DNA of 64,000 nt from Bryobacterales bacterium. Lineage in GTDB: Bacteria; Acidobacteriota; Terriglobia; Bryobacterales; UBA6623. Under the pieces are notes generated by a model, which was given only the letters and a program-made list of their open reading frames with translations, was not told the origin of the DNA and did not search any database. Shown one piece after another: positions 1 to 54,601 of this stretch (the stretch's first letter is position 1; each line of letters begins with the position of its first letter). The stretch lies in the NCBI GenBank assembly GCA_963422375.2, contig OY729427.2:832001-896000 (forward strand), written 5' to 3'. The translations under genes were made by a program, and so were the position numbers.

Positions 1-1407
1 TTATCAATCCATAAATTAATTTGACATTTCTCTTGGATATCTGTTGAAATTCGGTGGAAGTTCTTGATAGAATGGTTCCGATATAGGAGGTCATAGTTGA
101 AGAATTTGAAGAAGAACTGTCCCGGAAATTGGTTTCGTAAAGGCATCACGTTGATTGAAGTGATCGCCATGTTCCCCGATGACGAATCCGCGGAAAAGTG
201 GTTCGTCTCCGTGCGCTGGCCGGACCGTCCGGCATGCCCCCGCTGCCGCGGCTCCAGCGTGCAGTCCGGCGCGGCCCACCCTTCGATGCCGTACCGTTGC
301 CGCGGTTGCGGCAAGCGCTTTTCCGTGCGCACCGGCAGCGTGACGGCCGACACCAAGCTCGGCCACCGCGTCCGGGCCATCGCCATGTTTCTGCTGACCA
401 CCGGCCTCAAGGGCGTCTCCAGCATGAAGCTGCACCGCGACCCGGGCATCAGCCGGAAGTCGGCCCGGCACCTGGCGCACCGCATCCGCGCGTGCCGGGA
501 GCGGGACCGGGACCTGTTCGTCGGCCCGGTGGAAGTGGACGAGACGTACGTCGGCGGCAAGGAGCGCAACAAGCACGAGAGCAAGAAGGCCCGCGCCGGG
601 CGCGGGCCGGCCGGCAAGACCCCCGTGGCGGGCGCGCGGGACCGCGCCACGAACGAAGTGGCCGCCCGGCCGCTGCCGGGCACGACCGAGGGCGACCTGC
701 AGGGCTTCGCGCGCGGCCGGGTCGCGCCGGGCGCGCAGGTCCGCTCCGACGAGGCGGCGGCCTGCGCCGGCATGGCGGAGTTCGCGCACGAGGGCGTCAA
801 GCACTCCGGCGGCGAGTACGTGCGCGGGGCGACGCATGCGAACGGCATCGAGTCGTTCCGGTCCCTGTTCAAGCGCGGCCTCTACGGAACCTATCAGCGG
901 ATGAGCGTCCAACATTCGGGCCGCTACCTCACGGAGTTCGCGGGACGGCGCAACGCCCGCAACTGCGACACGGCGGAACGGATGCGGCGCATGGCGCGGG
1001 GCCCGGTCGGCCGGACGCTGACCTACCGGCAACTGGTCGGCAAGGCCGCGGTCGCGGCCCGAGCACGGCCTGGCCGGTCCGCTGCGGCCTCTCTTCACGC
1101 TCGGTGCGAAGGGCGCTCCGGATCCGGAATCCCGCGCCGCGACCGGTGTCCAGTCCGGACAATTCATAGATGCAGCCGCCTTGGAAGGGGAGCCTCTCCA
1201 CGGCAATCCGGGTTCCACCGGGGCGCCCGAGGCGGCCTCTCCAGTCCGTGCGCCGCGAAATCCGCTGGCCGCCGCGATTCAGATACGAACCGACCTTTCG
1301 GTGCCCACCTCGGCTGCACACGAAAGACCCGAGCTAGACGCCGACGTCCCCAATCAGAGCAGTTCTAGCCGGATATGGCGTCGTCGGCACTCAGATATAT
1401 AATTCCC
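1..1407 (+). mobile_element. IS1595-family (ISXO2-like) element, copy 1; left end lies outside the window
   Basis: Transposase ORF from 97 has a Zn ribbon (CPRC..YRCRGC), VEVDETYVGG, SDE and ANGIESF motifs. Right TIR CACTCAGATATATAATTCCC ends at 1407. Near-identical to 32482-33887. Confidence 0.93.
97..1368 (+). pseudogene. Degenerate IS1595 transposase; reads through its expected end near 1045 into the element tail
   Basis: Family W/L positions are replaced by R/P (HRVRAI, HRDPG, SARHL, ESFRS, RGPVG). Confidence 0.75.
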
Positions 1408-1643
1408 CTTGTAAACGGCCGGCCTGCGGCGGCGCACTCGAGGGAGTGCCTCACCGTGCGCGACCCGTCGATGGCGGCGACGCCGCGCGCATCGAGCTGA
1501 AAGACGCGCTTCCGGCCGGTGGCCCGATCAAGGCCCGGGGCGGCCAGCACAGCCCCGCCCGGCTGCGGGTCGGGCAGACGAATCCCCTCATGGGCCCGCA
1601 GGTCTTTCGATCCCGCTCCTAGCTGAGCCCGCACTAGTGTACG

Positions 1644-3086: not shown

Positions 3087-3884
3087 CTCGCCCGGCCGAC
3101 GCCGCTTTCCGCGAGCAGCGACGGCAGGTCGCGAACGGAGTCCAGCACCCAGTGCGGGCGGTCTGGGGAGTCGAGATCGGCCGACCGGAACTTCCCCGTG
3201 CGCACGAGCGCGGAGCGAAGGCCTGCCCGCTGCGTGCCCAACGCGTCGGCTCGCAGGTCGTCGCCGACCATCAGCAGATCGCCGGGGGCGACGCCCAGAA
3301 TCTGCGACGCCTGCACGAAGAAATCCCTGGCCGGCTTGCCCAGCACTACCGCACGGCGGCCCGCGGCGCACTCCAAGGCAGCCACGAACGGCGCGACGTC
3401 CGGGTTAGCACTGTCAGGCGACTGCCAGTACCGGGTCATCCCCAGCGCCACCAGCTCGCGCCGCGGGCATTCGTGCAGAAGGCGGAAGGCGCGGTTGAGC
3501 GTCGCGTAGTTCCAGGCCGCGCCGAGATCCCCGATGACCACGTAGGCCAAGTCCGCCGGGGCGGTGGCATCAACGGTCTCCAGTCCGCGGAATTCCTCGC
3601 GCGTCGCATCCGGCACAAACAGCGCGGCGAGGCCGGCTCCGCGGCTCCGGATTCGAGCCGCCGCGGCGACCGGCGGCGTCAGCAAGTCTTCCGTCCCGGC
3701 AGGAATGCCGAACCGGGCCAGCTTCGCAACCAGCGCCCGCCTCGGTCGGCGAGGTCGCGTTCGTGACGAATAGCGACGGGATGCCGGCCTCTCGCACCGC
3801 TGCGACGGCGTCGGCGGCACCCGCAATCGGCTCCTCGCCGTTGTAGATCATGCCGTCCAAGTCGATCAGAACGCCGCGGAGCAT
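3083..3884 (-). pseudogene. HAD-IIA hydrolase (LHPP/HDHD2-like) with a +1 frameshift near 3748
   Basis: DLDG and FVTN motifs are in one frame; GKP and MVGDD..D motifs are in another. Removing one C (ACC TCG c CGA CCG) joins them. Confidence 0.8.
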
Positions 3885-3906
3885 GCCTCACAGTCTACTG
3901 GCCGCG

Positions 3907-4741
3907 TCAACAGTCGTTGCTGAGCTTGCGGACCGGCCGCGCGGACTTGCGATGGCAGGCGTTGCGCTTGGACACGCGCCGCTTACGGCGCACCTCGCCG
4001 CGCGCCCGCACCCGCTTCTTGCGCGTCCTGCCGCCCTTCTTCGGGCGGTCGACGGCACGACTGCCCTCGCGGGTCGCCTTGCGATGCTGCGTATCGCCAA
4101 CGCGTCGGATACGCTCGCCATCGCTGGTTGCGACTTGATCCGCGACGCGCGGGTCGATGCCCGCGACGGACGCGGACGGCGGCAGAGGCAGCTTGCGGAC
4201 GCCGTGGAGCACCATGTCCACGTTGATCCCTGCGTCCGTGCGGGTGATGCGGACGAGCTGCGGCTCGAGGCTCGGCAAGCCGCGCCGCGGCTTGATCTTG
4301 ATCTGAGGCAGGCCCTCGATGCGCGGGACGTACCAGCCGCCGCCGCGCCTCCAGAGCCGTGGCCGGCGCTAGCACTCGATCGTGCGGAACCTGCTAGCGG
4401 GCTTGCACCGCGGGTAGCCCGGCTGCTCGCCGGCCCTGCACCGCCGGAAGAACGCCTTGAATGCCTAGTCCACCCGCGAGAGCGTGGCATCGATCACCTT
4501 CGCGTAGTCACCGCCAAGCATCGCCGGCTCCGCCTTGCGGAGTTCCGGCAGCCGGCTGCGCTGGTCGAAGTACGAGACGTTGCGCTTGGCTTAGTCCCAG
4601 GCCTTCTCGCGCTCCTCCAGCGCCTTGGCGCAAAGCCAGCAGAGCCAGCCCAGCACGGCGCCGATCCGGGCAAAGCAGGATTCCGGCAGTGCCCGCGCTC
4701 TTGGCAGGTGACTGTAGCGACCGCTGGATTGAGTCAATCAC
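3907..4741 (-). pseudogene. tnpB: TnpB (IS200/IS605 RNA-guided nuclease) relic, C-terminally truncated
   Basis: Manual translation gives ALEEREKAWD*..SYFDQ..LSRVD*AFKAFFRRCRAGEQPGYPR..VAGIDP (RuvC-I like)..KKGGRTRKKRV..NACHR. Three in-frame stops; no RuvC-II or Zn finger. Confidence 0.8.
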
Positions 4742-5141
4742 GCCAAGACTTCAGCGTGAACCTGAATCACAGATTTCGTGCGGTGACACCCCTAATTCCG
4801 AACGAACCTGATCCCCCCGAGAAACTGGCTTGATTGCCCAGCCGAGGGCGCACGGCCGGGGAGGTGGCAGGTGAGCTGGACGGCCACCCCGCGGGGGCCG
4901 TGGCATCATCCTTGCGACTGGCCGTCATCCGCGGTGGGCGCCTTGGCCTGGCAGTGCCCGCTCCGCTCCGGTTGCCATTTTATTCGAAATTGATTGGTTG
5001 TTTCGAGCAATATGCTAGATGTCTTCGGGCTTCTGGGTCGGAGATCATGAAAATGCTAGGCGAGATCTATTATGCGATTAGTGTTAGTAACGTAGGATAG
5101 AGCTAAGTAACAATTCGTACTTAAGGCTCTTGAAACTCTCC

Positions 5142-5970
5142 ATGTCGAAGAACAAGATCTAGTTCCAGAAGGGTCTCAGCTTGGGCGACTTCCTCGCCGA
5201 CTTCGGGAGCGAGGAGCGGTGCGAGCAGGCCCTGTTCGCCATCCGCCGGCCCGAGGGCCGCGCCCGGTGGCAGCGCAACGGCTGCAAGCGCCAGGTCTCG
5301 CTGCTGGCGGGCGCGATCTTCCAGAGCACCAAGCTGCCGCCGACCACCTGGTTCCTCGCCATGTATCTGCTCTCGGAGACCGGGAACGGCATCTCGGCGC
5401 TCGAACCGGGGCTCCTGCGGGCGTGAACAGCAGCACGGACTGGAGGCTCCAGCACAAGCTCCTGCCGGATCGCGAGGGCGATCGCCTCTTGAAGGGCTTC
5501 GTGCATGTCGGCGGCGAGCGCGGTCGCGGGGCGGAAGGCAAGACCCGGCTGGTGGCGGCGGAGCAGGTGACGGACCAGGACGAGCGGCAGCCGGTGGTGC
5601 TCAAGCCGAGCGTGCTGGAGGGCTTCCGCAAGGAGGAGCTGGAGCGCTGGGCGCGGGAGCACCTGGCGCCGGGCACGACGGTGCAGTCGGACGGGCCGGG
5701 CTGCTTCGCGGGCGTCGAAGCGGCCGGCTGCGAGCACGAGGCCACGGTCACGGACGGGGGCAAGCGCGACTGCGCGCTGCCGCAGCTGCCGTGGGTAAAC
5801 ACGGTGCCGGGCAACGTCAAGCGTTCCATTGACTGGACCTACCACGCGGTCGGGCCGAAGTACGCGGGGCGCTACCTGGCGGACTTCCTGCACCGCCTCA
5901 ACCGGCGCGACGACCTGAAGGCGATCGCGGGCCGGCTGCTGCGGGCGGCCGCCGATGCCGTACTCAATGC
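5142..5970 (+). pseudogene. Second, divergent IS1595-family transposase relic with internal deletions
   Basis: MSKNKI*FQKGLSL..EERCEQALF, IFQSTKLP..WFLAMY..NGISALE, SDG.GCF, WVNTVPGNVKRS..YH..RYLADF..NRR. Confidence 0.85.
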
Positions 5971-6362
5971 GGACCGGAGGTCCGTTCTGCGGGCGCTAGG
6001 TCGCGGAGGCAGCGCCCCGGCCCTCGGCGGCGCCCGAGCGCGGAGGGCCGCGCCAGGATCCACGGACGGACCGCCCGGGGGCGGCGCTGCGGGTCGGGCC
6101 CGAATGGGGCCCGTGCGCGGACGACGCCTTGGATTCCACGGGATCCGGCTGGCCGAGCAGCCGCCCGACGAACGGCTAAGGGCTCCTCGCGTGCCCGAGT
6201 GCCGCCCCTCAAGTCGGCCCGTTTGTCTAGATTGTTCGGTCGGATGGGGCTAGTCGGGAAGTACGATGACATTTGACGCGTTCTGTAGAACGCGCGCGGC
6301 CGGCCGTGGCGACCCGGACCCGCTGATACACTGGTCGCTGCGACCTTGGACCGCGCCTGCTG

Positions 6363-8042
6363 ATGCCGCACCCACTGAAACACGCCAGCGCGACGATTAC
6401 CGACGGACGCGACAGGGCCCCCGCCCGGTCGATGTTCAAGGCCATCGGATTCAGCGACGCCGACCTCGCCAAGCCCATCATCGGCATCGCGAACACCTGG
6501 ATCGAGACGATGCCCTGCAACTTCACCCTGCGGGACCTAGCCGTCAAGGTCAAGGAAGGCGTGCGCGCCGCCGGCGGCACGCCGATGGAGTTCAACACGA
6601 TCGCCGTGAGCGACGGGATCACCATGGGCACCGAGGGCATGAAGGGATCCCTAGTAAGTCGCGAGATCATCGCCGACTCGATCGAGCTCGCGGCTCGCAG
6701 CTACATGTTTGACGGGCTGGTCGCTCTGGTCGCCTGCGACAAGACTATTCCGGGCGGCGCCATGGGCCTGGCGCGGGTCAACGTGCCATCGGTCCTGCTG
6801 TACGGCGGCTCGATCCTGCCGGGCCAGGTCAACGGCGTGGACATTACGATCCAGGACGTGTTCGAGGCGGTCGGAGCGCACGCCGCGGGCAAGATCAGCG
6901 ACGAGGAGTTGCTCGCGATTGAGGACAATGCCTGCCCGGGCGCCGGGGCCTGCGGGGGCCAGTACACCGCCAACACCATGGCCACCGCGATGGAAGTCAT
7001 CGGCATCTCGCCCATGGGCACGGCCAGCATCCCGGCCGTCGATCCGCGCAAGGACGATGCCGCGTACCGCGCGGGATTCGTGCTGATGGAGGCGCTCAAG
7101 GCGGACCGCCGCCCGTGCGACATCATGAATCGCAGGGCGTTCGAGAGCGCAGTCGCCAGCGTCGCCGCCACCGGCGGCTCGACCAACGCCGTGCTGCACC
7201 TGCTCGCCCTGGCCAGGGACTGCGGCGTCGATCTCACCATCGACGACTTCGACGCGATCAGCGAGCGCACTCCCCTGCTAGTTGATCTCAAGCCCGGCGG
7301 CAGGTACGTCGCGGCCGACGTCGACAAGGCCGGCGGCATCCAGCTGATCGCCCGGCGCCTGGTCGAGGGCGGCTACGCCGACGGATCGCAGATGACCGTG
7401 ACCGGAGCGTCCCTCGCCGAGGCTAGCGCGACCGCCACCGAGACACCGGGGCAGGACGTGATCCGATCGGTCGGCAACCCGATCAAGCCCACCGGGGGGC
7501 TCGTCATTCTCAAGGGCAACCTCGCGCCCGAGGGGGGCGTCGTCAAGGTCGCCGGATCCGGTCACCTGCGGCACCGGGGCCCGGCAAGAGTCTTCGAGAA
7601 CGAGGAATCGGCCATGCAGGCGGTCACGGGCGGCGCGATCGCCGACGGCGACGTGCTGGTCGTCCGCTACGAGGGCCCGGCGGGCGGGCCCGGCATGCGC
7701 GAAATGCTCGGCGTCACGGCTGCCATCGTCGGGGCCGGGCTCGGAGAGACGGTAGCGCTGCTCACCGACGGGCGCTTCAGCGGCGCGACACGTGGGCTGA
7801 TGGTCGGGCACGTCGCACCGGAAGCCGCCAGGCGCGGGCCGATCGCGGCCGTCCGGGACGGCGACTTCGTGGTGATCGACTGCGCCGAGCGGAGGCTTGA
7901 CCTAGAAGTGCCAGACGAGGAGATCGAGCGCCGCCTGAACGCCCTCGAGCCGCCTCCCGCGCGCTACGCCTCCGGCGTCTTCGCCAAGTACGCGCTGCTC
8001 GTGTCGTCCTCGTCCCGGGGCGCGGTCACGCATCCGGAGTGA
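6363..8042 (+). CDS. ilvD: Dihydroxy-acid dehydratase
   Basis: [46 protein letters not shown]. Confidence 0.97.
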
Positions 8043-9366
8043 GCCCGGAAGCGACCGCTCCGTCGTGGCGGTCGAGGATCTCCCGAATCCCGGCGCGGTC
8101 GGGCGCTGCCGTGACCGGCGCGTTGCCGAACGAGGGGCGAATCGGGTCACCTGAAGGCGTCTCCAATCGGCCCGCATGGTAGCGGTAGACGAAGTCCGGG
8201 TCCTTCAGCAGGTGACCGGTCAGGATCCCTACTACGTCGGCCGCGGGCTCGATAACGCCCGCACGCACGAGCTTGCGGATTCCCGCCAAGGTGGCGGCCG
8301 ATGCGGGCTCGCAGCCGATGCCGCAGCGGCCGACGATCGCCTTCGCGTCGGCTATCTCCTGCTCGGTCACGGACTCTACGACACCACCCGCCGATCCGAC
8401 CTCGAATGCGGCCTTCCGCCACGAAACCGGGTCACCGATGCGAATCGCCGTCGCCAGAGTCTCGGGCTCGCGCACCGGGCGCAAGTCCCCGCCGTCCCGG
8501 AACTGCGCAAAGAACGGAGCCGAATTCGCGGCCTGAATCACGGCGATGCGAGGCATGGCGGGGACGATTCCGATCTCGCGCAACTCACGCAGCCCCTTTC
8601 CGAGGGCGCTGACGTTGCCTAGGTTCCCCCCGGGCAGGACGATCCAGTCGGGGACGCGCCAGGCCCGTTGCTCGAGCAGCTCGACACCGATCGACTTCTG
8701 CCCCTCGATCCGGAACGGGTTGATGGAATTCAGCAGGTAGATTCCGAGTTCCTGGGCCAGGTCCCGCACCAAGGCCAGTATGCGGTCGAAATTGGCCTCC
8801 ACCTGAATGGTGAGCGCGCCGTACTCGAGGGCCTGGGCGAGCTTGCCGTAGGCGATCTTGCCGGCAGGTAGGAAGACCGCCGCCTGCATGCCGGCGGCCG
8901 CGGCATACGCGGCCATGGACGCGGACGTGTTGCCCGTAGAGACGCAGGCGACCCGGCGCATGCCGAGAATCGCCGCCTGCGTGACCCCGGCCGTCATGCC
9001 GTTGTCCTTGAAGGATCCGGTCGGATTGTAGCCCTGGTGCTTGAACTGCAGCCGCTCGAGGCCGGCGTGCGAGGCGGCTGCGGGGGCCTCGAATAGGGGC
9101 GTGTTCCCTTCGGGCAGGGAGACGATGCGACCGATGTCGGTCACGAACGGCAGCATCTCGCGGAAGCGCCATACGCCGCTGACGTCGACCCTAGCGAGGC
9201 TGAGCTTGCGCAGCTGCCATGTCGACCGCAGCCGGTCCGGGTCGGCACCAGGGAAGGAGTTGGCGACCTCGAGCAGGCTGCCGCACGCGCCGCAGGTGTA
9301 GACGACCTCGCCAAGTCCGTAGCGCCTGCCGCAGTTCCGGTCGAAGCAGGCCAGCTGGGAGGCCAT
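8026..9366 (-). CDS. thrC: Threonine synthase
   Basis: N-terminal Zn ribbon, [13 protein letters not shown] (PLP Lys), STGNT, PGGNLGN, CEPASA, TGHLLKD. Confidence 0.93.
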
Positions 9367-9477
9367 CGCGGGCAAGGCTCATCCTACCAACGAGGCCCAC
9401 GGCCCGATTCCCGTGCGGCGAGCGGCGCGAGCCGGCGACTTGCCCCGATGGCCGTCGCTGCGACAGAATCTTGAGAA

Positions 9478-10842
9478 ATGCCTCGCACCTGCCTCGCCCT
9501 GTCCGTCCTCTCGCTGGCCCTCGCGCCGATGGCGCGGGCCCAGCCGAACATCTTGCTCGTGCTGGCAGACGACCTGAGCTGGGTGGGCACCTCGGTCGCA
9601 ATGGATCCGGACCGGCCCGACTCGAAATCCGACTACCACAGCACGCCCGCGCTGGAACGCCTCGCTCGGGAGGGCATGCGCTTCACGGACGCCTACGCGC
9701 CCCATCCCAACTGCTCGCCGACCCGCCTCGCGATCCAGACCGGAAAGTCCCCGGCGCAGCTCAACATGACGGACATCATCAACCGCAACAGCGGTCCGTT
9801 CTACGAGGGCCTCCCCCTCATCCCGCCGCAGCACAGGAACCATATCCCGCACGAGGAAGTCACGATCGCGGAATTTCTGAAGCAGCACCGACCGGGCTAC
9901 GTGACGGCGCACTTCGGAAAGTGGCACCTCGGCGGGGGCGGCCCGGGCCGGCACGGGTACGACGACCACAGCGGCCCGACCTCCAACCGCGAGGGCGGAT
10001 CCGGCTCCCCCGACCCGAAGCGCACGGTCAGCGTGACGACCCGCGCGGAGGATTTCCTGCGGCACCGCAAGGATGCGGGCGAGCCGTTCTTCCTGCAGGT
10101 CTCCTACTACGCCGTCCACCTCGGGATCCGCGCGTTCGACGAGACGATCCGGGAATTCGAGGCGAAGACCCGGGGCGCGAGGCACAAGCATCCGGGCCAC
10201 GCGGCCATGACTCACGAGCTGGACGAGGGCGTCGGCCGGCTCCTCGACGCCCTCGACCGCTTGGGACTGAATGAGAGCACGTACGTGATCTTCACCTCGG
10301 ACAACGGGTCCTACCATGACCAAGGGCGCAGCGAGGTGTGCAGCAACGCGCCGCTACGGGGCCAGAAGGCGTCCACCTGGGAGGGCGGCATCCGCGTGCC
10401 GCTCATCGTCCGCGGGCCGGGCATCGCAGCCGGGGGCGCCTCCCGGGTCGCGGTGACCGGCACGGACCTCTATCCCACGATCGCCGCGATGGCTCGCATA
10501 CAGGCCGAGCTGCCTCCGTCGATCGAGGGCGGCAGCCTGCTGGACGTGCTCCATGCGGGCGGCTCCGGCAGCGTGCGACGCCGCTTCGACAGTCTCGTCT
10601 GGCATTTCCCCCACTACCAGACGCTGAAGGGCACGACGCCGATGTCTTCGATCCGGGAAGGGAAATGGAAACTGGTGCGGCTGTACGAGACCGGCGCGAC
10701 GCACCTTGTCGACCTGTCCAAGGACCTTGGGGAAACAGAAGACCTGAGCGCCTCCGAGCCGGCCGTCGCGCAGCGTCTCGAGGACCGGCTGGCCAGCTAC
10801 CTCCAGGCGATCAACGCGCCGATGGCGCGACCGCGACAGTGA
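9478..10842 (+). CDS. Secreted sulfatase (S1)
   Basis: Signal peptide, PNILLVLADDL, CSPTRLAIQTG, GKWHLG, TSDNG, EGGIRVP. Confidence 0.93.
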   Translation: MPRTCLALSVLSLALAPMARAQPNILLVLADDLSWVGTSVAMDPDRPDSKSDYHSTPALERLAREGMRFTDAYAPHPNCSPTRLAIQTGKSPAQLNMTDIINRNSGPFYEGLPLIPPQHRNHIPHEEVTIAEFLKQHRPGYVTAHFGKWHLGGGGPGRHGYDDHSGPTSNREGGSGSPDPKRTVSVTTRAEDFLRHRKDAGEPFFLQVSYYAVHLGIRAFDETIREFEAKTRGARHKHPGHAAMTHELDEGVGRLLDALDRLGLNESTYVIFTSDNGSYHDQGRSEVCSNAPLRGQKASTWEGGIRVPLIVRGPGIAAGGASRVAVTGTDLYPTIAAMARIQAELPPSIEGGSLLDVLHAGGSGSVRRRFDSLVWHFPHYQTLKGTTPMSSIREGKWKLVRLYETGATHLVDLSKDLGETEDLSASEPAVAQRLEDRLASYLQAINAPMARPRQ

Positions 10843-13079
10843 CGGTCCGGCCGTCAGGCGGCGGATCGAGGGCCGTGTCCGAGTCGCGTCGTCAGGGAGT
10901 GATAGCCCGGGAGCGTCGCGCCGCGGCCAACGCCGACCGGCCGCCTGGGCAGCGCGTCGCGAACGCGCTGCGCGTGCTGGCGGTGATCGCCTCGCTGGGC
11001 GCGGCCGGCGGCCTAGGTGCTCAGGACTTGGACCTGGTCCTGTACGCGGGCGACCCTTCAAGGCGCACCTTGGCGGACCAGATCGAGGATCCCGAGGAGC
11101 GAGCGGCCTTCGAGACACTGCGGGCGGCCACGGATGCCGCCGAAAAGCGAGCACTGGCCGAGCAGTTTCTGAAGCGCTTCCCCGACTCGTGGTTCGTGAG
11201 CTTCGCGCACTTCTCGGCAGCCATGGCCTGCATCGATCTCGACGACCTGCAGGCCGCGCTCGAGCACGGAGAGCGATCATTGCGGATCCTGCCCGAAAAC
11301 GGAACGCTCCAAGTCGCTCTCGCCAACGTCCGGGTCCACTATGGCCTGCTGGACGACGCGAGGCGCGGCGCGATGGACGCGCTGGAGATGCTCGCAAGAT
11401 TCCAAGGGCCCTCGCACTACGAGGCAGCGGAGTGGGCGCGCACTCGGCGCGAGCTGGAAGCCTCGGCGCACTTCGTGCTGGGCCGGGTGGCGGCTACGAG
11501 GGCGTTCCGGCAGTCCGGAGAGGAAGCGGACGCGGGGCTGTCGTCGGCCAGGGCGTCCCTGCTCGAGTCCCTGCAGCTCAACCCCTCCGATGGCATCGCG
11601 CTGCTGCTGCTTGGCATCGTGGAAGAAGGACTCGGAAACAGGGAGGCGTCGCTGTCGGCCGTCGAGGCAGCCGCGCGGCTGCCGGGTCCGGCGCAGGCCC
11701 GGGCGACGGACAAGCTGCGCGAGGCCTTCCGGCAGCGTCCCGGAGGGGCCGAGACCTTCCAAGACTTCCGGGCGGCGATCCGGCCGCTGCGGCCGACAGG
11801 CAATGGCGACGGACCGGCCGCCCGCGACCGGAACGCCGCCCCGGCCGCGTACGCGGGCAGCGAGAGCTGCCGCGAATGCCACCAGCAGGTCTACGACGCG
11901 TGGAGGGACACGGGCATGGCGCGGATGTTCCGTCCCTACGCCTCCGAGAACGTGATCGGCGACTTCTCGGAGCACGCCGAGTTCCGCGACCCGGCCGGGA
12001 CGCTCCTGAGCCGCATGCTCGTCGATGGCGACCGGCACTTCTTCGAGCTGCCCGCGGACAGCGGCTCGAAGCGGTTCCGCGTGGACTACACGATCGGATC
12101 GAAGTGGCAGCAGGCCTACGCCACGCGCCTTCCGAACGGGCGAATCCACGTGATCCCGATCCAGTACAACGCGCTGCACGGCAGGTGGGTGAACTTCTGG
12201 GAGACGCTCGACGACGGCCCCTCGGAGCGATCGCGCGTGCGGGACTTCCATCGCATGGACGCCGCTACCAGCTACCAAGTCCACTGCTCGCCGTGCCACA
12301 CGAGCCAAGTGCAGGCTGAAGGCAGTCTGGTCATGCCCGAACGCATGACGTTCCGCGAAAGCGGAATCAACTGCGAGATGTGCCACGGGCCGTCGCAGGG
12401 GCATGCGGCCGACATACGCGACGGGCGCACGGCGGCGACCGAGCCGACAGACCCTCCCCTGCGATTCGGGCAGCTCGACCATCGAGATTACGTGGAAGTC
12501 TGCGCGCAGTGCCACATGCAGTCCGCCGTGATCGAACCGGGGCCCCGGGGCGAGATCAACTACACGGGCAGGCAGGCGAAGTTCGTCAACGGGCGCTTGC
12601 AGCGCCCGTACGACAACTACTCCCGGAGCGCCTTCTACAAGGACGGTCGATTCCGCGAGACGACGTTCATTGCCGAGGCCTTCGTCCGGACGCAGTGCTA
12701 CCGGCAGGGCCAAGCCCATTGCGGGCACTGCCATGACCCGCATCCTGCCGACAGCGCCGACAATCCTACGTCTCTGAAGCATCGCGACGATCCGAACCGC
12801 ATGTGCCTGCAATGCCACGCGGCGCCGACCTACGACGTTCCGGCCCACACAAGGCACGCCGCCGGTTCCGAAGCCAGCCGCTGCGGGGCCTGCCACATGC
12901 CGAAGATCATGAACAGCATGATGTTCATGGCGAGCACCCATCGCATCGACGACATACCCGACGCCGCTATGACGGAGCGCTTCGGACCGGCCGAGAGCCC
13001 GAATGCCTGCCTGAGCTGCCACGCGGACAAGCCGGTCCGGTGGCTGGCGCCGGCCCTGGCCGAGTGGCAGGTCCGCTAG
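10839..13079 (+). CDS. TPR-repeat plus octaheme c-type cytochrome; start uncertain (10839 or 10875)
   Basis: Hydrophobic leader, helical TPR-like half, then eight CxxCH motifs (CRECH, CSPCH, CEMCH, CAQCH, CGHCH, CLQCH, CGACH, CLSCH). Confidence 0.88.
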   Translation: MTVRPSGGGSRAVSESRRQGVIARERRAAANADRPPGQRVANALRVLAVIASLGAAGGLGAQDLDLVLYAGDPSRRTLADQIEDPEERAAFETLRAATDAAEKRALAEQFLKRFPDSWFVSFAHFSAAMACIDLDDLQAALEHGERSLRILPENGTLQVALANVRVHYGLLDDARRGAMDALEMLARFQGPSHYEAAEWARTRRELEASAHFVLGRVAATRAFRQSGEEADAGLSSARASLLESLQLNPSDGIALLLLGIVEEGLGNREASLSAVEAAARLPGPAQARATDKLREAFRQRPGGAETFQDFRAAIRPLRPTGNGDGPAARDRNAAPAAYAGSESCRECHQQVYDAWRDTGMARMFRPYASENVIGDFSEHAEFRDPAGTLLSRMLVDGDRHFFELPADSGSKRFRVDYTIGSKWQQAYATRLPNGRIHVIPIQYNALHGRWVNFWETLDDGPSERSRVRDFHRMDAATSYQVHCSPCHTSQVQAEGSLVMPERMTFRESGINCEMCHGPSQGHAADIRDGRTAATEPTDPPLRFGQLDHRDYVEVCAQCHMQSAVIEPGPRGEINYTGRQAKFVNGRLQRPYDNYSRSAFYKDGRFRETTFIAEAFVRTQCYRQGQAHCGHCHDPHPADSADNPTSLKHRDDPNRMCLQCHAAPTYDVPAHTRHAAGSEASRCGACHMPKIMNSMMFMASTHRIDDIPDAAMTERFGPAESPNACLSCHADKPVRWLAPALAEWQVR

Positions 13080-13091
13080 CCGGCCGCGCGC

Positions 13092-13877
13092 CTAGCGACC
13101 GCTGAAGGCGGGCCCCCGCTTCTCCAGGAACGCGCGCGTGCCTTCGCGGACGTCATCGGTGGCGCAGCTAAGCGCGTACTGCGAGACCTCCCAGTCCAGC
13201 GCCGCGTCAAGGGGCATGGCCAGTCCCCGGTCGACGGCTTGCAAGGTGAGGGCGACCGCGACCGGGCCGTTACGCAGGATTCGGGCGGCCAGCGCAGCGG
13301 CGTCCGCCAGCAGGCGCTCCGGCTCGGCGACCCGGTTGACCAATCCCATGGCCTGCGCCTCGTCCGCGCTGACCGGATCGCCCGTGAGAAGCATCTCGAG
13401 TGCCCTGCCTCTGCCCACGAGCCGGGGCAGCCGCTGCGTGCCTCCGAAGCCGGGCACGATGCCGAGCCGGAGCTCGGGCTGGCCCAGCCGCGCCCGCGAC
13501 GAGGCGACCCGCAGGTGGCAGGCCATGGCCAGCTCGAGACCCCCGCCAAGGGCGTAGCCGTTGATCGCGGCGATCACGGGCTTGCGCAGCGACTCGACGC
13601 GACGCAGCATAGCCTGCCCGCGCAGGCCCCACGCGCGCGCCTCCAGCGCGCTGAATCCGGATACTTCGTCAATGTCGGCCCCGGCGACGAAGCTCCTGTC
13701 GCCAGATCCGGTTACGATGATCGCGCGGATTCCGTCGTCCTCCCCAGCGTCGAGGAAGAAACGGTCCAGCGCGTCGACCGTCGCGCCGTCGAGAGCGTTG
13801 AGCTTGCCCGGACGGTTGACGGTCACGACCGTGACACCGCGGTCTGTCGCGATCAGAAGGTTCGGATACGGCGGCAT
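13092..13877 (-). CDS. Enoyl-CoA hydratase (crotonase family)
   Basis: NRPGKLNAL, FVAGADI, KPVIAAINGYALGGGLELAMAC, GQPE..LG..PGFGGTQRL. Confidence 0.95.
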   Translation of the reverse strand: MPPYPNLLIATDRGVTVVTVNRPGKLNALDGATVDALDRFFLDAGEDDGIRAIIVTGSGDRSFVAGADIDEVSGFSALEARAWGLRGQAMLRRVESLRKPVIAAINGYALGGGLELAMACHLRVASSRARLGQPELRLGIVPGFGGTQRLPRLVGRGRALEMLLTGDPVSADEAQAMGLVNRVAEPERLLADAAALAARILRNGPVAVALTLQAVDRGLAMPLDAALDWEVSQYALSCATDDVREGTRAFLEKRGPAFSGR

Positions 13878-13921
13878 CCGGCCCAGTGTACAGCGGCGCT
13901 TCCGGCAGCGATCCGACACGG

Positions 13922-14130
13922 TGCCGCCCCGCTTGCCCGTGCCGGGACTTGATACGGGGTCGTCAATCGGACGGGCAAGCGACTGGCGGCAGGCAGGGCC
14001 GGAACCCAGTGCCACGGCGTCAATCGCAAGGCCTCGCGCCTGCAACCGTACGCGGTCGAACGCCCCGCCAAGTACCGGTTCGAGACCCTCCGTTCCAAGC
14101 CCCTTGAAGCCGACTGTATCCCGCAAGTCC
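13922..14130. ncRNA. Candidate structured non-coding element (6S-RNA-sized rod or long palindrome)
   Basis: GGACTTG/CAAGTCC and GATAC/GTATC close a 186-nt span (13945-14130). An alternative 11-bp perfect helix is CGCTTGCCCGT/ACGGGCAAGCG. Confidence 0.3.
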
Positions 14131-14478
14131 TACCTGTCACGCGCAGCGCCGACCCGACCGGCCGGCACTTCCCCCGACTCAGGAGCCGAATGAACAGCTC
14201 TCTTGATCGCCGCAAGCGCACTCGAGCGCCGCCTGCCTCTCAGGCATCGCACCAGCCCTCTTCCACAGAATCCACATCGCCACTAGTCAGCGCCCGGTCA
14301 AGGTCCTCGAATTCTTCCCAAGTGCATTCCCAGACAGCCACCTCGACACCGGGGGCGTCCGGGCCCTCTTGCCTTAAGTCGATTCGGAGGCCACCCACCG
14401 CCGAGCGGGGGGCAGAGCTGGAGAAGCGGGCCAAAGTCTAAGTGTACGCCCTCGCTCGAGCCGACGGGCCCCCGCGGC

Positions 14479-16856
14479 CTGCCCATGTCCCATAGGTCGG
14501 CGTTGACAAACGGAAGCCCCGGGCACAGGGAGTTGCGGAGCGGGGCCTTAGGATAAGCAGACGGCAGGGCCAGTCCGCGCAGTCGGCGAGACCCCGGCAG
14601 CGGGACGGTCGCAGCCGCCCGGTGTTTTTCCCACGGAGCCCTCGACAAACGGCCGCCGAGCTGCCTTCAACGGGTCATGCCCCGGAACCGCATTCTCGAA
14701 ACGCTGTCGGGCCCGGAGGGTCTCCTCCGCCTGCGAGCGCTGCTGGACGCGGAGACCTTCCCCCATCGCACCGCGCTCGCCGCGTACGTGTGCGCCAACT
14801 TCCGCTTCCACGACGCTCGCGGAAACTGCCAAGCGGTCACCTGCCTGAAGGCCTTGCGGACCCTCCACGCCCGCAACAGCATCGCTCTCCCGCCGCCCGT
14901 CCGCCACGGCGGGCACGGCCGCCCCGTCGAGGCCCCGCGGTCCGTGCCGGCGCGCGCCGGCGCCGTCGAGGACCTGCGCCTCGAACTCGTCGCCGACGAC
15001 CGCAGCCGCCGGCTCCGGACCGAACTGATCGCCCGCGAGCATCCCCGAGGCGCCGCCTGCCACATCGGTCCCCAGCTGCGCTACCTGCCGCTCTCGCGGC
15101 ACGGCATCCTCGCCGCCTCCGCCCTGGCTCTCGCCGACCGCTGGATCGGCTGGGACGCCGAGCGCTGTCGCAACCGGCCTTGCGCGCAGTGCCGCAACCT
15201 CGCCTCCAAGGCCCTCGCTCCGGGCCTGCGCCGCCTCCCCGCCGACCTCCGACGGCGCTACGGCTGCGAACCCCTCCTCGCGGAGACCTTCGTCGACCGC
15301 CGGCGCCGGCCTCAAGGCCGCCAACTGAATCCACATCGGCCGCACCGCAGGCCGCGGGCGCTGCGCCCCGACCGGCGCGACCGTGCCCATCAAGGCCGTC
15401 TTCCTGTATCCCCTGCGGCACGACTGGCGCCGCCAGCCGGGCGTGCCCGCGCCCCCCGTGCCGGACCTCGCCGCCGGGCTGCACCGCGACAGCTGGGCCC
15501 GGCCCGAGTTCGGCAGTGCTCGACTTTGAGATGTACGCCGGAGCCGCCGCCCGGTGCAATGCTCGGCCGCCATGATCGACGCGCCGCGGGCCTCGTTCGT
15601 CTCCGCAGCCTAGTCCGACCGCGCCCTGATGAAGGCCTGATACCGCATGATCGACCAGCCGGCCGAGGCCGTCGTGCTGTGCGTCCAGGACAGAAGCGAC
15701 CTCAAGTTCGCCGAGCGACCGGACTGCGTCGGCCCGGGGCTGATCGGCAGGAACAACCGTTCCAAGGGCACCCTCGGCCTGCACATGCATTCGACGCCGG
15801 CCGTCAACGGCGACGGCATCCCGCTGGGCGTGCCGCCTATCCAGTTCGAGGCCCGGGACGGCCGGGCCGGGAAGCACAAGCCGGCCGAGCTGCGCAAGAC
15901 GCAGCGCTGGGTGCGAGAGCTGCGGGACACGGCCGAGCTGGCCGGGCGGCTGCGGGGGACACGGCCGGTCGCGGTCATGGACCGCGAGGCGGACGTGTTC
16001 GAGCTGATCGCCGCGCGCCGGCGGCTGGATGGGATCGACCTGCCGGTGCGGGCCAGGCACAACCGCAGTCTCGGCCAGGACCGGCCGAAGCTCTTCGACC
16101 GCCCAGGCGCGCCCGGCGCTACGCGTCCCGCGCAGCTCGGCCCGGCGCGGCACGCGGCGGCAGGCGGCGAGCGAGTTGCGCCCGGCGCACGGCCAGAGGT
16201 GGTGCTGCGCCGGCAGACGGTCCCGCTGCCGGCGCCGGCCGAGGGACCCGAGCGCGGGAGCGAGCCGATTCGCCTGAACATGGTGCACGTGCGGGAAGAC
16301 GCGGCCCCGGACGGCGCCGAGCCGCTGGAATGGTTCCTGCTGACGAGCTTGCCGATGCGGTCGCGGGCGGACGCGGAGCGCATCCTCACCTGGTATCGCC
16401 TGCGCTGGCGCATCGAGGACTGGCACCGGGTGCTCAAGTCCGGCTGCCGGGCGGAACACCTCGGCCATCGCCGCGGCGAGCGGATCGAGCGGGCGGTCAC
16501 GATCAAGGCGGCGATCGCGTGGCGCCTGACCGTGATGACGCTGCCGGGCCGGGACACGCCCGAACTGCCGCCGCGCGATCAATTCTCCGACGCCGAGCTG
16601 CGGGCGCCGGGCGACTTCGCCAAGGCTCGCCAGTTGCCGGCACCCGACAACCTAGGGCGCGCAGCGCTCACCACGGCGATGCTCGGCGGCTATCTCAACC
16701 GCAAGCACAATCCCCCGCCCGGGCGCGAGGTTCTCTGGGAGGGCTACACGCGACTCGCTACGGCCACGCAGACGTACGAGCGGCTGATCGACCTAGATAA
16801 AGCCAGTAACTTGTACCGAAACCTGCCCTTAACCAAGACTCATGGGAAAAAGGCAG
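14479..16856 (+). mobile_element. IS4-family element; frameshifted transposase with an N-terminal DUF4338-like region
   Basis: Imperfect TIRs CTGCCCATGTCCCAT / ATGGGAAAAAGGCAG; 8-bp TSD CCCGCGGC (14471-14478, 16857-16864); motifs CVQD, VMDREAD, WFLLT, YRLRWRIEDWHRVLKSGC, LGGYL..PPG...LWEG. Confidence 0.9.
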
Positions 16857-17810: not shown

Positions 17811-17944
17811 TGCGGGATGACTGGAAGTGTCGGCGGTGGCGACGGCCATGCGGCGTAGGCGCGCGAGCGGGGCAGAGAGGGGTCCGGCCGCGCTCGGCAG
17901 GCGCGCCAAGGCCGAGGCAGCACAAGCTGCTGGAAAAGCGGGGG

Positions 17945-40906: not shown

Positions 40907-40969
40907 GGGAATTATATATCTGAGTGCCGATAACGCCATATCCGGCTAGAACTGCTCTGATCGGGGAGG
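40907..40969 (-). mobile_element. Isolated right-end stub of the IS1595 element
   Basis: GGGAATTATATATCTGAGTGCCG..CCGGCTAGAACTGCTCTGAT matches the reverse complement of about 1347-1407. Confidence 0.88.
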
Positions 40970-42394
40970 CAGCGGTTCTAAATTTAGCCGTCAAGGGGAT
41001 GCGTGAACGTTGTTTCGGAGGATGGAGGATGAGGTGAATAAGTTGACCGAGAGGTTGCGCTCCCGAGGCCGCCCGCGGGAGCGTCGGACGGCGGGCAGGG
41101 CCGTGGCGCGGCCCGCGTCGCGGGTCCGCGGAGTGCCGAGCCCGCGGCCGGACGCACTCCGGCGGTAGCCGGCTGCGACGGTCGGCCGCCCGCCGGACGC
41201 TGCCGGCACGAAACTGCACGGAGTCCAGGCCCCGGCCGCCCGGCCGCCTGGCAGCCCGGAGGCGCGCGTCCGTCGCGCACCGCCGCCAGCAGCGCCGGCC
41301 GGTCCGGGAAGCGGAGCCAGCGCAGCGCGACCTGCAGCTCCCGGAACAGGGCGCGGCGCGTGACCAGCTGGCGCCGGCACTGCCGCCGCAGCGCGCAGAC
41401 GCACTGCACCACGGCGTGGAGCGCGAAGGCGAACGGGTTCGGCACGGCCGGCACGTTGGCCAGCCCTTCCTTGCCGTGCCCGAAGTTGCGCTTGCAGTTG
41501 CGGCCGTGCCGCGCCAGGCAGTTGAAGCCCTCGTTCTCGATCTTCCAGCGCGCCCGGCCGGCCCGCGCGATCCGCTCCGCGTTGTCCGCGGTGACCGCGA
41601 GACCGGTGAAGAAGCTGTTGGCGCAGGTGCGCTTGCCGTCGCGCTCCACGGCGTACTCGAGCCAAGTGCCCCGCAGGGCGTCGCGGCCCTGGCGCAGGGG
41701 CGCCGCGGCCGTCCGGCGGAAACGGTGCCGCTCGGACCGCTTGCCCTTCCCGCGCCGCGGCAGCCAGCCGGTCGAGCGCACCGCGCCGCTCGCCCGCCGG
41801 CTCTCCGGCACCTCGTGCAAGTGCTTGCGGGATCCGGGCTTGCCTACCCGGATGCAGTCCATGCCGGCCGCCGCGGCGGCCTCGCAGAGCGGCTGGCAGC
41901 AGTACAGGTCGTCGCCCGGCAGGACGGGGCGGCAGGACGGACCACTCGCCGTCCAAAGCCGCGAGCAGGCGCTGGAAGGGCGCGAGCGCGCCCTGCGCGG
42001 CCACGGTTTGCAGGCCCGGCCGGAACAGCGAGCCGCACGCGGCCGGGTCGAGGCGGTCGAGCAAGTTGCGGATCCGGTTGTCGCAGGGGATGCGGCCCAC
42101 GCCGAGCAGGGTCGGGCAGTTGGAGCGGGAGCCGTCCCGCTCTATGCGCCGCTGGAACTGGAGGAACGACTCGCACCGGGGGCAGAAGCAGGCCGGGGCG
42201 CAACCGGCGGCGTCCCTGACCGCGTAGCGCGTGTTGCGACGCGCGCGACGGTCGCGCAGGCCGGCGGCCGTCCCGCGGAAGGCGCTCGGGAGCGAGTCCA
42301 GGACATGGGGCATACATCCTGACTCACGAGATCCGCGAGCGAAAGTCACTCGGACACTCTGGAAATCCCAAGATTCCCGAATTGAGGATCGCTG
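40970..42394 (-). mobile_element. ISNCY-family element, internally deleted
   Basis: TIRs CAGCGGTTCTAAATTT / AATTGAGGATCGCTG; near-identical to 52896-54601 but lacks about 290 bp after ALDG; no TSD. Confidence 0.92.
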
Positions 42395-42832
42395 CCGAAT
42401 GCCCATCCCAGTAGGGCCCCTAAGCGTAGCCCAGATCGACGGGCACCGCCTTGGCGGCAAGGCTCGCCCATGACCTTGGGTGGAGGCGCAACTAGTCGCC
42501 ACTGCCGTTGGCATTACGGTGCGAGCTGCCCGGGTTTCACGCCCATTGGATCCCCGCTCCTCTCAACGGAGAGGCATCGGATGCAGCAGGCCCCGAGGGC
42601 CCCGGCCCGCCGCAAGGCACCGAGCCCCCATCGGGTCGCATCTCGCCTCGGCCACGCTAGGACGATTCTCCGACAGGGCGTCAAGACGCAAGCGACACTC
42701 GCTCAGCAGGGTTGCACGGTAACCAGTCAAGCTGCGAGCCCGGGCCGCTCCCGGTCCGAACGAATCCCCCTTCAGCCATACTGGCGGGTTGGCGCCCGGC
42801 GTGCCTGCCGCCTGCGCGTAAACTGGGACCAC

Positions 42833-48974: not shown

Positions 48975-49976
48975 TCAGGCCAGCGCTTGCCGGTGGCTTT
49001 CCACGCCGGCCTCGGCCAGCAGATTTCCGGCGGTTCCGTGGAGCGGGTACTCGAGGTTGTACACCACCCGCGCTATGCCCGCGTTAATGATCATCTTGGT
49101 GCAGATCAGGCACGGCGAGCAGATCGAGTACAGGGTGGCCCGGTTGACCGAGATGCCGTGGTAAGCCGCCTGCACGATCGCGTTCTCCTCCGCGTGGCTG
49201 CAAAGGCACTCGTCGAGCCGCGTCCCGCTGTCGGCGAGCTCGTTGCAGCGGGGGCAGCCGCCCTCGTTGCAGTTCGTCACGCCGCGCGGCGTGCCGTTGT
49301 AACCGGTGGAAATGATCCGCCGGTCCTTGACGACCACTGCGGCGACCTTGCGCTTCATGCAGTTGGAGCGAAGGGCCACGATGCCGGCGATCCGCATGAA
49401 GTACTCGTCCCAGCCCGGGCGCGAGGCTCCCATCATCCAGCGCCGGGCGACCTCGGTGACGGCGCCGGCGAGCGCCTCCTTGGTGCCGTCGTTGACGATG
49501 GTCTTATCCGCCTCCGCCCACGTGGCGCGCAGCTGCTGGCTGGCTGCATTCGAGCTCTCCAGCTCGCGCCGTTCCTGGTCTACGAACTCGCGGTACGAGG
49601 AAGGCGCGCGGTCACCGCCCCGCTCGAGCACGCGACGGTACCGCAGCCGGGCCGGAGCGTCGAGATGCAGCAGGCGGAACTCGCCCCACTCGCGCAAGGC
49701 CCGCACTTCGTGCGGCGAGCGGATCGAGTCGACGACGTAGTTCTGATCCGGCCGGAACTTCCGGCCCACGCGCTGGGCGAGCACGGACGGCCCGAAGTCG
49801 GCCCGCAGCCTGTTGCCCTCCGCTATGAGGTTCTCCCGCGTCGGGGAGCGGTCCCCGGCCGCGAGCTCCTCGCGAATCACGTCCGACAGGGAGTGGAACC
49901 GGAAGCCCTTCTTGCGCAGGTGCTCGGCCGCGACCGTCTTGCCCGAACCGTTGGTACCGGTCAGTCCGATAATCAT
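48975..49976 (-). CDS. P-loop NMP-kinase-like domain fused to a dCMP deaminase
   Basis: IGLTGTNGSGKT, VVDSIR, then RPGWDEYFM, RSNCMKR, TGYNG, HAEENA, PCLIC. Confidence 0.92.
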   Translation of the reverse strand: MIIGLTGTNGSGKTVAAEHLRKKGFRFHSLSDVIREELAAGDRSPTRENLIAEGNRLRADFGPSVLAQRVGRKFRPDQNYVVDSIRSPHEVRALREWGEFRLLHLDAPARLRYRRVLERGGDRAPSSYREFVDQERRELESSNAASQQLRATWAEADKTIVNDGTKEALAGAVTEVARRWMMGASRPGWDEYFMRIAGIVALRSNCMKRKVAAVVVKDRRIISTGYNGTPRGVTNCNEGGCPRCNELADSGTRLDECLCSHAEENAIVQAAYHGISVNRATLYSICSPCLICTKMIINAGIARVVYNLEYPLHGTAGNLLAEAGVESHRQALA

Positions 49977-50189
49977 GGCCGATAGACCACTATCGCAAAG
50001 CACGAGCGCCTGGCCGAAGCGTCCGTTCCGGTCGCGGGCCGGTCCCGTGCCGAGAGCACGGGACTCGGCGGGGCTGGCGGCCCGACCGCCATCTCAATCC
50101 GGGATCCCGCTCCCCGCGCCGCGAGGCTCGAGAAACACCGACGCGACAAGCGCCTCCGAGCGCTGCTGTCATCGACCGTGCCGAGGCTG

Positions 50190-52353: not shown

Positions 52354-52895
52354 GGACGGAATCAACGCCGAAGCGAAGCGTTGCCAAAGCGAGACCGCAC
52401 CGACCGACGGGCCACACGAGAAATCACCGGATCAGGGCAGCGTGAGATTATCACGAGATTCGCAAACCAACTCAACCGCCGTGAAGGGATACGGTGTTTC
52501 CGTCAGCTCCGTCGCGTTGATGTTGGACTATAGCCTGTCCCGACCCCGCTCCGTTTGGCTGGTTTAACATGTCGCACGAATCCGACGGATCGTGAGAATC
52601 GTATGAGACTCCAGAGCCCCCGCCAAGGATCGAGAACGGCTGCTGTGGACGCAGTTGGAGTGTTCGATACCGGATCCAATGGCCCCGGAGATCTGTATTC
52701 TTAGCCGTGACAATGTACTGTGCAAGAGGTCGTCTCCAGTCGATAACACGGGACTCAAGCCTGCGAAAGGGAGACTGAGAGAGTCGAGATTCTGCATCCC
52801 AGGCCTACCGTCGGGAAGACTGGTTTCCGGCAAGTCTGGGATTCTCTCGGGCCCCTTGATGCCGACAATTCTAGTGCAGGGAGACTTCCTTCCGT

Positions 52896-54601
52896 CAGCG
52901 GTTCTAAATTTGGCCGTCAAGGGGGTGCGTGAACGTTGTTTCGGAGGATGAGGTGAATAAGTTGACCGAGAGGTTGCGCTCCTGAGGCCGCCCCGCGGGA
53001 GCGTCGGACGGCGGGCAGGGCCGTGGTGCGGGTCCGCCGAGTGCCGAGCCCGCGGCCGGACGCACTCCGGCGGTAGCCGGCTGCGACGGTCGGCCGCTCG
53101 CCGGACGCTGCCGGCACGAAACTGCGCGGAGTCCAGGCCCCGGCTGCCCGGCCGCCTGGCAGCCCGGAGGCGCGCGTCCGGCGCGCACCGCCGCCAGCAG
53201 CGTCGGCCAGTCCGGGAAACGGAACCAGCGCAGCGCGACCTGCAGCTCCCGGAACAGGGCGCGGCGCGTGACCGGCTGGCGCAGCGCGCAGACGCACTGC
53301 ACCACGGCGTGGAGTGCGAAGGCGAACAGGTTCGGCACGGCCAGCACGTTGGCCAGCCCTTCCTTGCCGTGCCCGAAGTTGCGCTTGAAGTTGCGGCCGT
53401 GCCGCGCCAGGCAGTTGAAGCCCTCGTTCTCGATCTTCCAGCGCGCCCGGCCGGCGCGCGCGATCCGCTCCGCGTTGTCCGCGGTGACCGCGAGACCGGT
53501 GAAGAAGCTGCTGGCGTAGGTGCGCTTGCCGTCGCGCTCCACGGCGTACTCGAGCCAAGTGCCCTGCAGGGCGTCGCGGCCCTGGCGCAGGGGCACCGCG
53601 GCCGTCCGGCGGAAACGGTGCCGCTCGGACCGCTTGCCCTTCCCGCGCCGCGGCAGCCAGCCGGTCGAGCGCACCGCGCCGCTCGCCCGCCGGCTCTCCG
53701 GCACCTCGTACAATCCCTTGCGGGATCCGGGCTTGCCTACCCGGATGCAGTCCATGCCGGCCGCCGCGGCGGCCTCGCAGACCGGCTGGCAGCAGTACAG
53801 GGCGTCGCCCGGCAGGACGGGGCGGCAGGCCTGCAGCCAGGCGCCGTCAGCGGCGAGCCAGCGCTTGGCGGCGTTGCGCTCGCAGTCCCGCTTGCGCTCG
53901 TCCTCGCTCGTGTCGGCGCGGGTCGCGGCCGCGGCCTGCAGCGGGCGCACGAACTCGGGCATCAGCGGCAGGACGGTGGCGTGGCCGTCGGCCACCGCGG
54001 TGGCCGCGACCATGGCGTGGAAGTGATGCGGCCGGCGCTCGCTGCCGACGCGCCGCACCGAGCACTGCGGGCCATGCACCCTGTCGGAGCGGTGGAACCG
54101 GACGCCGTCCGGCGCCGCCGGCAGGCGCTCGTCGAGGCGCTGGAAGGGCTCGAGCGCGCCCGGCGCGGCCACGGTTGCGAGGCACCGCCGGAAGAGCGGG
54201 TCGAACGCGGCCGGGTCGAGGTCGTCGAGCAAGTTGCGGATCCGGTTGTCGCAGGGGATGCGGCCCACGCCGCACAGGGTCCGGCAGTTGGAGCGGGAGC
54301 CGTCCCGCTCCATGCGCCGCTGGAACGCGAGCAACGACTCGCACCGGGTGCAGAAGCAGGCCGGGGCGCACCAGGGCGCAACCGGCGGCGTCGCTGACCT
54401 CGTAGCGCTTGTTGCTGCGACCGTCGCGCCGGTCGGGCCGGCCGGCGGCCGTCTCGCGGAAGGCGCTCAGCGGCGAGTCCAGGACATGGGGCATACACCT
54501 TAGCTCACAAATTCCGCAAGGAAAAGTCAAGTGCCAGACTGCCTTCGACACCTTTCTCAGACACTCTGGAAATCCCAAAATGCCCAAATTGAGAATCGCT
54601 G
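52896..54601 (-). mobile_element. ISNCY-family element, most complete copy; transposase frameshifted near the 5' end
   Basis: TIRs CAGCGGTTCTAAATTTGG / CCAAATTGAGAATCGCTG; 9-bp TSD TCCTTCCGT (52887-52895, 54602-54610); motifs PLMPEF, DCERNAAKRW, RARWKIENEGFN, NFGHG. Confidence 0.93.

Follow-up and report, generated by a model that had tools for sequence, protein, structure and literature searches.

Fungal repeat-induced point mutation (RIP) kills transposon families through directional C>T changes and requires a dedicated C5-methylase-like protein, and GC-biased gene conversion leaves balanced rare variants, GC-skewed common variants, and exchange between copies. Here we analyze eroded insertion sequence (IS) copies in a 64,000-nucleotide stretch of a Bryobacterales genome (C1:832001-896000, hereafter the window; genome G000, 6.0 Mb in three contigs, 67% GC). 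An earlier reading of its letters (the original prediction) had proposed either a strong GC-ward mutator visible only in unselected DNA, for example through Vsr-like repair, or a RIP-like inactivation targeted at repeats. We show that T:A>C:G change is favored in the G000 lineage, equally on both strands. This bias peaks in the contexts T-G-G and T-A-G, above all at TGGG and TAGG, and it affects whatever DNA selection leaves alone: IS copies, relics that stand alone, and synonymous sites. Its direction is opposite to that of fungal RIP, it extends beyond repeats, and it gives no evidence of homology sensing. The balance among rare variants, the skew among common ones, and the exchange between copies are like those of GC-biased gene conversion, but in G000 the signature is also found in relics with no partner, and the direction of exchanged alleles is not consistently toward GC.

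Very short patch repair by Vsr (Dcm/Vsr in Escherichia coli, Vsr-like proteins in Neisseria and Caulobacter) shares the T:G>C:G direction and a hot TAGG. The E. coli Dcm/Vsr motif is CTWGG, whereas in G000 the contexts are T-G-G and T-A-G, no methylase is adjacent, and the link to the enzyme is a predicted one. Passages of PMC2715241 describe E. coli Vsr as acting at CTWGG and able to stimulate CTAGG-to-CCAGG change, and passages of PMC12907096 describe degenerate motifs accepted by some Vsr proteins as well as orphan Vsr-like proteins; this literature fits TAGG but not TGG. The TDG bias of mammalian CpG islands, as outlined in a section of PMC4041421, likewise involves aberrant T removal in TpG and CpG gain, but it concerns another enzyme class in another kingdom, and G000 has T-A-G hot too and T-G-C much less so. 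A hypermutator deficient in mismatch repair (MMR), described in part of PMC10625568, also shows context-specific T>C; its signature is GpTpN, whereas G000 prefers a 3' purine-G, has intact mutS and mutL, and shows no raised C>T.

Results

Multi-copy DNA makes up ~18% of the G000 genome, in which the IS1595 family of the window has 114 copies and a second family has 43; the latter was named 'ISNCY' in the original prediction, a label kept here although an intact homolog gave a weak IS4-type match only. The IS1595 copies are old, with a nearest-neighbor distance of 1.3% at minimum and 3.2% at the median. Substitutions were polarized at codons conserved in intact homologs (29 for IS1595, 11 for 'ISNCY') from a comparison set of 30 congeners of G000 (31 genomes together), the closest of which is ~75% identical in MutS, and spectrum counts were limited to amino-acid-changing opportunities at these codons. 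The polarized spectrum of the two large families is GC-ward, as had been predicted: the mean derived fraction was 0.106 for T>C, against 0.011 for C>T, 0.013 for T>G, and 0.008 for C>A. Hot sites, defined by a derived base in 10% or more of the copies, numbered 51 of 285 for T>C versus 4 of 365 for C>T (p = 2e-15). At the protein level, conserved codons had undergone W>R, Q>R, Y>C, L>P, V>A, H>R, and T>A replacements, often in most copies, and each of these is a single T>C or A>G change. Every near-complete copy carried at least one conserved-codon change, none of 92 in IS1595 and none of 29 in 'ISNCY' retaining all conserved residues, the latter count possibly including lineage differences. 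Using the in-genome consensus as the ancestor gave a near-balanced spectrum and was rejected, because the consensus itself holds derived residues, which sit in most copies.

Sequence context separated hot from cold sites. T was hot at 7/9 T-A-G and 23/43 T-G-G sites but at only 5/143 sites before a pyrimidine; T-R-G-G (R, purine) was hot at 10/10 polarized sites, and T-G-G-C-G at 0/5. Over 12 families, more 3' G meant hotter sites (TGGG, 23/39; TAGG, 11/22), and a model of sequence context fitted to one family predicted the other with an area under the curve (AUC) of 0.88 to 0.93. The T>C pattern was alike on both gene strands, and with replichores set from a weak skew there was no leading/lagging asymmetry (814/1580 versus 782/1521). 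Changed sites were scattered over the family trees and unlinked to neighboring sites. Other local explanations were discarded: hot and cold sites did not differ in templating from local direct or inverted repeats or in the folding-energy gain of the C allele, and a bipartite motif (+9 G, +10 C), seen in an unpolarized set with partly redundant families, was not evident when the polarized lists were inspected.

The mobile-element copies and relics examined in the window, together with one host gene used as a control, are as follows.

1-1422, + strand: IS1595-family copy A (Pfam/NCBIfam IS1595), with its start 42 bases left of the window; the transposase open reading frame (ORF), 97-1368, is open via TGA>CGA and shows W90R, L113P, Q117R, W121R, Y220C, T245A, W252R, and Q292R against the 29 homologs
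3902-4789, - strand: TnpB-like relic (label of the original prediction), a low-copy repeat, with GIDP at 4161
5163-5940, + strand: divergent IS1595-type relic with NTVPGN at 5798; next copy 68% identical, no close partner
14473-16870, + strand: IS4-family relic with DLPVRA at 16037, TLPGR at 16538, and internal stops upstream
16940-17799 (ends approximate), - strand: single-copy IS630 relic without a partner
18062-19359, + strand: isolated 'ISNCY' DDE-family copy, nearest copy 12.5% diverged, with PDWPT at 19035
32468-33907, + strand: IS1595-family copy B, of the same subfamily as copy A, with HRDPG at 32956 and ESFRS at 33373
37409-40066, + strand: Tex-like host gene, the control
40961-42401, - strand: 'ISNCY' copy with NVPAVPNPF and PDRPA
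52888-54609, - strand: 'ISNCY' copy with NVLAVPNLF and PDWPT

All motifs quoted in the original prediction were located where it had placed them, and several proved to be the replacements it had taken from family consensus. In IS1595, ESFRS is W252R (TGG>CGG, with W in 29/29 homologs) and HRDPG is L113P; in IS4, DLPVRA and TLPGR are L>P changes against a profile of nine homologs; and the differences between sister 'ISNCY' copies correspond, in the copy at 40961, to L354P, L357P, L359P, W404R, and Y296C relative to intact homologs. At the GIDP stretch of the TnpB-like relic, five of eight other genome copies have L, two have P, and one is unaligned, and the homologs available for NTVPGN are only 23 to 29% identical, so that residues there are not polarizable. 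The single-copy IS630 relic has eroded GC-ward (T>C at 12 of 59 opportunities versus C>T at 5 of 72), with TGG changed at 5/9 and T-pyrimidine at 1/29; in the IS4 relic T>C stood at 7/123, with TGG at 5/21 and T-pyrimidine at 0/59. Read-through of the expected stops, noted in the original prediction, comes from TGA>CGA in IS1595 (of 106 copies with a codon at that place, 43 have CGA and 61 have TGA), but the IS4 copy lost its terminal stop through TAA>AAA. Host genes keep their residues, as predicted (W>R 5/957, L>P 6/946, and Y>C 4/914 in 244 intact host genes), and the Tex-like control showed the TGG signature at 0/26 conserved-codon sites. This control has a weak Pfam score yet is intact, and its divergence is similar across the genus.

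The bases themselves are real, because contigs from other runs and studies show no differences from the window: those of run X1 had none over 4538-14586, 16761-18101, and 18773-21491, which confirms the IS630 relic, and short zero-difference pieces from two further studies (X6 and X7) span parts of the IS630 relic and the relic at 5163, the bases of the latter being confirmed by X1 and X7. Identical pieces over window positions 3400-23300 came from samples of three studies, and the population looks nearly clonal there.

The signature is not confined to repeats. In 21 relic segments without a partner, TGG had changed at 17/74, TAG at 4/18, and T-pyrimidine at 9.5/232, with C>T at 22.7/653; in relics of G000 the effect reaches 30 to 40% of T-G-G/T-A-G-type sites. 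Selected relics of 11 congeners, treated by the identical method, gave TGG at 11/449, equal to their background (p = 4e-9 versus G000). From congener G007, 20 of the 43 IS630 matches were used (about 91% alike); they gave TGG at 0/197 and a T>G excess instead, and seven further congener copy sets, several of them young, gave TGG at 0 to 1 of 42 to 235. Mutually distant IS630 relics in G000 were hit at shared codons (Q192 in 4/6). At synonymous sites of host genes, T before G was depleted by 1.0 to 1.26 log-odds relative to eight congeners, versus 0.4 to 0.7 in other contexts (from 100 kb of each congener, with genes predicted by an in-house script), and in mutS, mutL, and Tex it was the lowest of the 31 genomes. 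GC at fourfold degenerate sites was 0.878 in G000, against 0.756 to 0.839 in congeners, and over 12 contexts hotness correlated with host T depletion (rho = -0.78). Within IS1595 the load of change at TRG did not vary with partner number (rho = 0.03), and a segment in three copies at 95 to 99.9% identity persists in the genome. Since lone relics and host silent sites carry the signature, it reflects a peculiarity of DNA repair or replication and not a defense aimed at repeats, and we regard a genome-wide T>C bias without repeat targeting as quite probable. Attempts to use C5-methylase relics as a non-IS pseudogene control were dropped, as there were six homologs and few codons.

Rare and common variants told apart two components. 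Singletons in the 12 families were T>C at 214/3196 sites, C>T at 494/7768, T>G at 123/3196, and C>A at 152/7768, giving an equilibrium GC for private changes of 0.56; being near-balanced, they indicate a hot-site process on a balanced background and not a blanket mutator. The original prediction of a GC-ward mutator in unselected DNA thus stands only in a narrower form, as a context-specific (T-G-G, T-A-G), hot-site, and lineage-specific process. IS subfamilies carry one another's alleles at 7 to 12% of diagnostic sites, in clusters, and linkage is gone past ~15 bases in all variant classes; in comparisons of exchanged alleles between subfamilies, T>C exceeded C>T in four of six and fell below it in two. 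Isolated copies had 2 to 10 times the C>T of the main groups and a TRG load of 24 to 25% versus 31 to 43%, with hot sites changed at 86/223 and cold TRG sites at 4/166, a pattern that fits either a process active for a limited time or one in which conversion aids the spread of some alleles. The ratio of TRG to T-pyrimidine change ranged from 0.9 to 3.5 over the 12 families. A finished episode was considered, because old and young copies bear a similar load, yet the youngest family still has the ratio of 3.5.

By family cutoffs, mutS and mutL are intact in 31/31 genomes; the G000 MutS and MutL have no stops and carry 4 and 7 changes, respectively, at otherwise invariant columns, within the congener range, and MutL has its endonuclease motif. 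G000 also carries mutY-like and MutT-like (Nudix) genes, both matching below curated cutoffs, as well as fpg (mutM), nth, two uracil glycosylases, and dnaE2; endonuclease V and NucS were searched for in G000 and neither was found. With T>G and C>A as low as given above, and mutY-like, fpg, and MutT-like genes present, the data do not resemble a GO-system mutator. One intact vsr lies at C2:2578614 (145 amino acids, 154 bits against a cutoff of 98 for TIGR00632) and its product also matches PDB 1cw0. No methylase is found among the ORFs within 1.5 kb of it; 18 C5-methylase (PF00145) matches, several of them broken, lie elsewhere in G000. The downstream neighbor of vsr is the same in 7/29 congener loci, and vsr is present in 30/31 genomes. 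The one genome without it (G045; 4.4 Mb, 53% GC in 60 kb sampled) also lacks dnaE2 and C5-methylases, is AT-shifted with a TpG excess, and so looks like the reverse of G000. When genomes taken to lack the vsr ortholog were compared in pairs, the outcome was mixed.

Several side observations concern the window, its element families, and related genomes. The nearest named record for one housekeeping protein of the window is a Bryobacterales genome (81% identity), and an Rfam search gave no match. At 48975-50003 (- strand) lies an AAA plus dCMP-deaminase protein that resembles an anti-phage dCTP deaminase model below its cutoff and could bear on deoxynucleoside triphosphate (dNTP) pools. Genome-wide, insertions of at least 6 bases are often tandem duplications (75/162 in IS1595, 55/78 in 'ISNCY'), frequently at one shared place in many copies, and may be slippage or excision footprints. 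The triplicate segment noted above is a C5-methylase region found in C2:1320001-1350000 and at the ends of C1 and C3, thus twice at contig ends, and is either an integrated element or contig overlap. In IS copies of congeners G007, G046, and G044, T>G recurs at certain sites, in many cases as TTC>TGC (F>C), and C>T is scarce; this looks like a second, genus-wide GC-ward class.

Discussion

Our results confirm that the erosion of transposase copies in the window is real and that it is not RIP-like. In the process we propose, T would be cut out specifically where it is mispaired with G, and C filled in, the agent most likely being the one orphan Vsr endonuclease of the genome, with relaxed T(R)GG specificity. 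Its substrates would be replication errors with G opposite template T and, in addition, the T:G mispairs that arise when two IS copies form a heteroduplex, a route that would make some alleles common within a family. We lean toward such T:G-to-C:G over-repair by Vsr, perhaps enhanced when copies exchange sequence, as somewhat more probable than its alternatives taken together; the assignment to Vsr in particular we hold tentatively, as a little less than an even prospect.

A number of results weigh against this reading or limit it. Vsr is 62 to 83% identical to that of G000 in 21 of the 29 congener loci examined (83% in G003), and congener relics lack the signature despite so close a Vsr, so that Vsr is not sufficient and a changed specificity or level must be assumed. 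T-T-G was hot at only 1/21 sites, unlike CTWGG, and T-G-G is no E. coli Vsr motif. In a larger unpolarized set the context AUC was just 0.71, and one identical 7-mer had changed in 30/32 copies at one site (94%) and 0/36 at another (0%), so that context accounts for only part of the pattern. The correlation with host T depletion was also seen in four unaffected congeners (rho = -0.61 to -0.76), and G017 has a stronger TG-specific synonymous index than G000 but relics with TGG at 2/69. A host pseudogene screen (W>R 5/102 versus 5/957) gave a hint only, the 30 'broken' loci being contaminated by intact genes. G017, which has the strongest TG-specific synonymous depletion, also has 19 C5-methylase matches.

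A bias of replication itself would need no special repair enzyme: a polymerase property, a dNTP imbalance (low dATP, high dGTP/dCTP, with next-nucleotide extension), or a blind spot of intact MMR would allow A:T>G:C errors to pass before runs of G. The rise in hotness with 3' G and the smaller excess of T>G over C>A among singletons are what it would produce, dATP-poor pools give A:T>G:C and A:T>C:G changes in yeast according to part of PMC6326808, and part of PMC13250602 describes rates in E. coli shaped by extended context. Against it stand the lack of replichore asymmetry, the ordinary conservation of intact MutS and MutL, and the GpTpN preference of T>C after MMR loss in the relevant section of PMC10625568, whereas here GTC was hot at 1/23 and GTT at 1/27; we consider it unlikely. 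GC-biased gene conversion as the main driver, with balanced mutation and T/C differences resolved to C in short patches, accounts well for balanced singletons beside a skewed class at 10% or more, for the short linkage and clustered foreign alleles, for identical contexts at very different frequencies, and for isolated copies with 2 to 10 times the C>T but no higher TRG change. It does not account for TGG changes in partnerless relics (17/74) or for the shared codons hit in distant IS630 relics, foreign alleles have no consistent GC direction, and T alleles at TGG are fixed in one subfamily and C alleles in others, so that this explanation appears improbable.

Adenine deamination at CCA/CTA, chemical or by a DNA-acting deaminase and fixed for want of endonuclease V, would yield A>G through inosine in a genome where that enzyme was not found, and, according to PMC4041421, human TDG excises T paired with hypoxanthine at TpG, leading to CpG. 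Yet endonuclease V was also not found in the four congeners searched, three of which (G003, G007, and G045) have relics that were tested and show no signature, and linked one-strand A>G clusters are absent; no candidate DNA adenine deaminase turned up, although no genome-wide deaminase search was made. We judge deamination to be quite improbable. A repeat-recognizing defense that mutates duplicated mobile elements, the RIP-like branch of the original prediction, would explain why no near-complete copy keeps all conserved residues and why the signature relative to C>T is 7- to 19-fold in high-copy families and ~2.5-fold in single relics, but it is contradicted by the affected single-copy relics and host synonymous sites, by the flat load with partner number, and by the persistence of the triplicate segment, and is very improbable. 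A sequencing or polishing artifact at methylated motifs would share the motif-like context, but with zero differences over X1 contigs of 1.3 to 10 kb and pieces of two other studies, and with host genes unaffected, its probability is close to nil.

How GC-rich bacteria keep their composition despite the AT bias of mutation wherever it is measured has long been a puzzle; for the one acidobacterium measured, a passage of PMC8717266 gives a mutational equilibrium of 38% GC versus an actual 60.5%. Old IS copies, which account for much of the multi-copy DNA, offer about a hundred natural replicates per site, and in G000 they show balanced private changes together with a GC-pushing hot class whose contexts are like those seen at host silent sites, so that mutation, mis-repair, and biased conversion become separable in this system. 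Over-repair of T:G and context signatures are known kinds of process; so strong a natural, lineage-specific signature, preserved in the IS fossils of an acidobacterium that has its repair genes intact and whose measured relative is AT-biased, was not found reported in the literature searched, most subscription journals being outside its reach.

The findings show how open but dead transposase frames can originate in such genomes. It is conceivable, if rather unlikely in this full form, that a solitary, vertically kept Vsr, altered in specificity or level, acts as a directional genome editor that turns T:G into C:G wherever T(R)GG is mispaired in replication errors or in heteroduplexes of IS copies, raising host GC and, as a by-product, disabling large transposon families. 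If true, this would be a passive bacterial counterpart of RIP that runs GC-ward.

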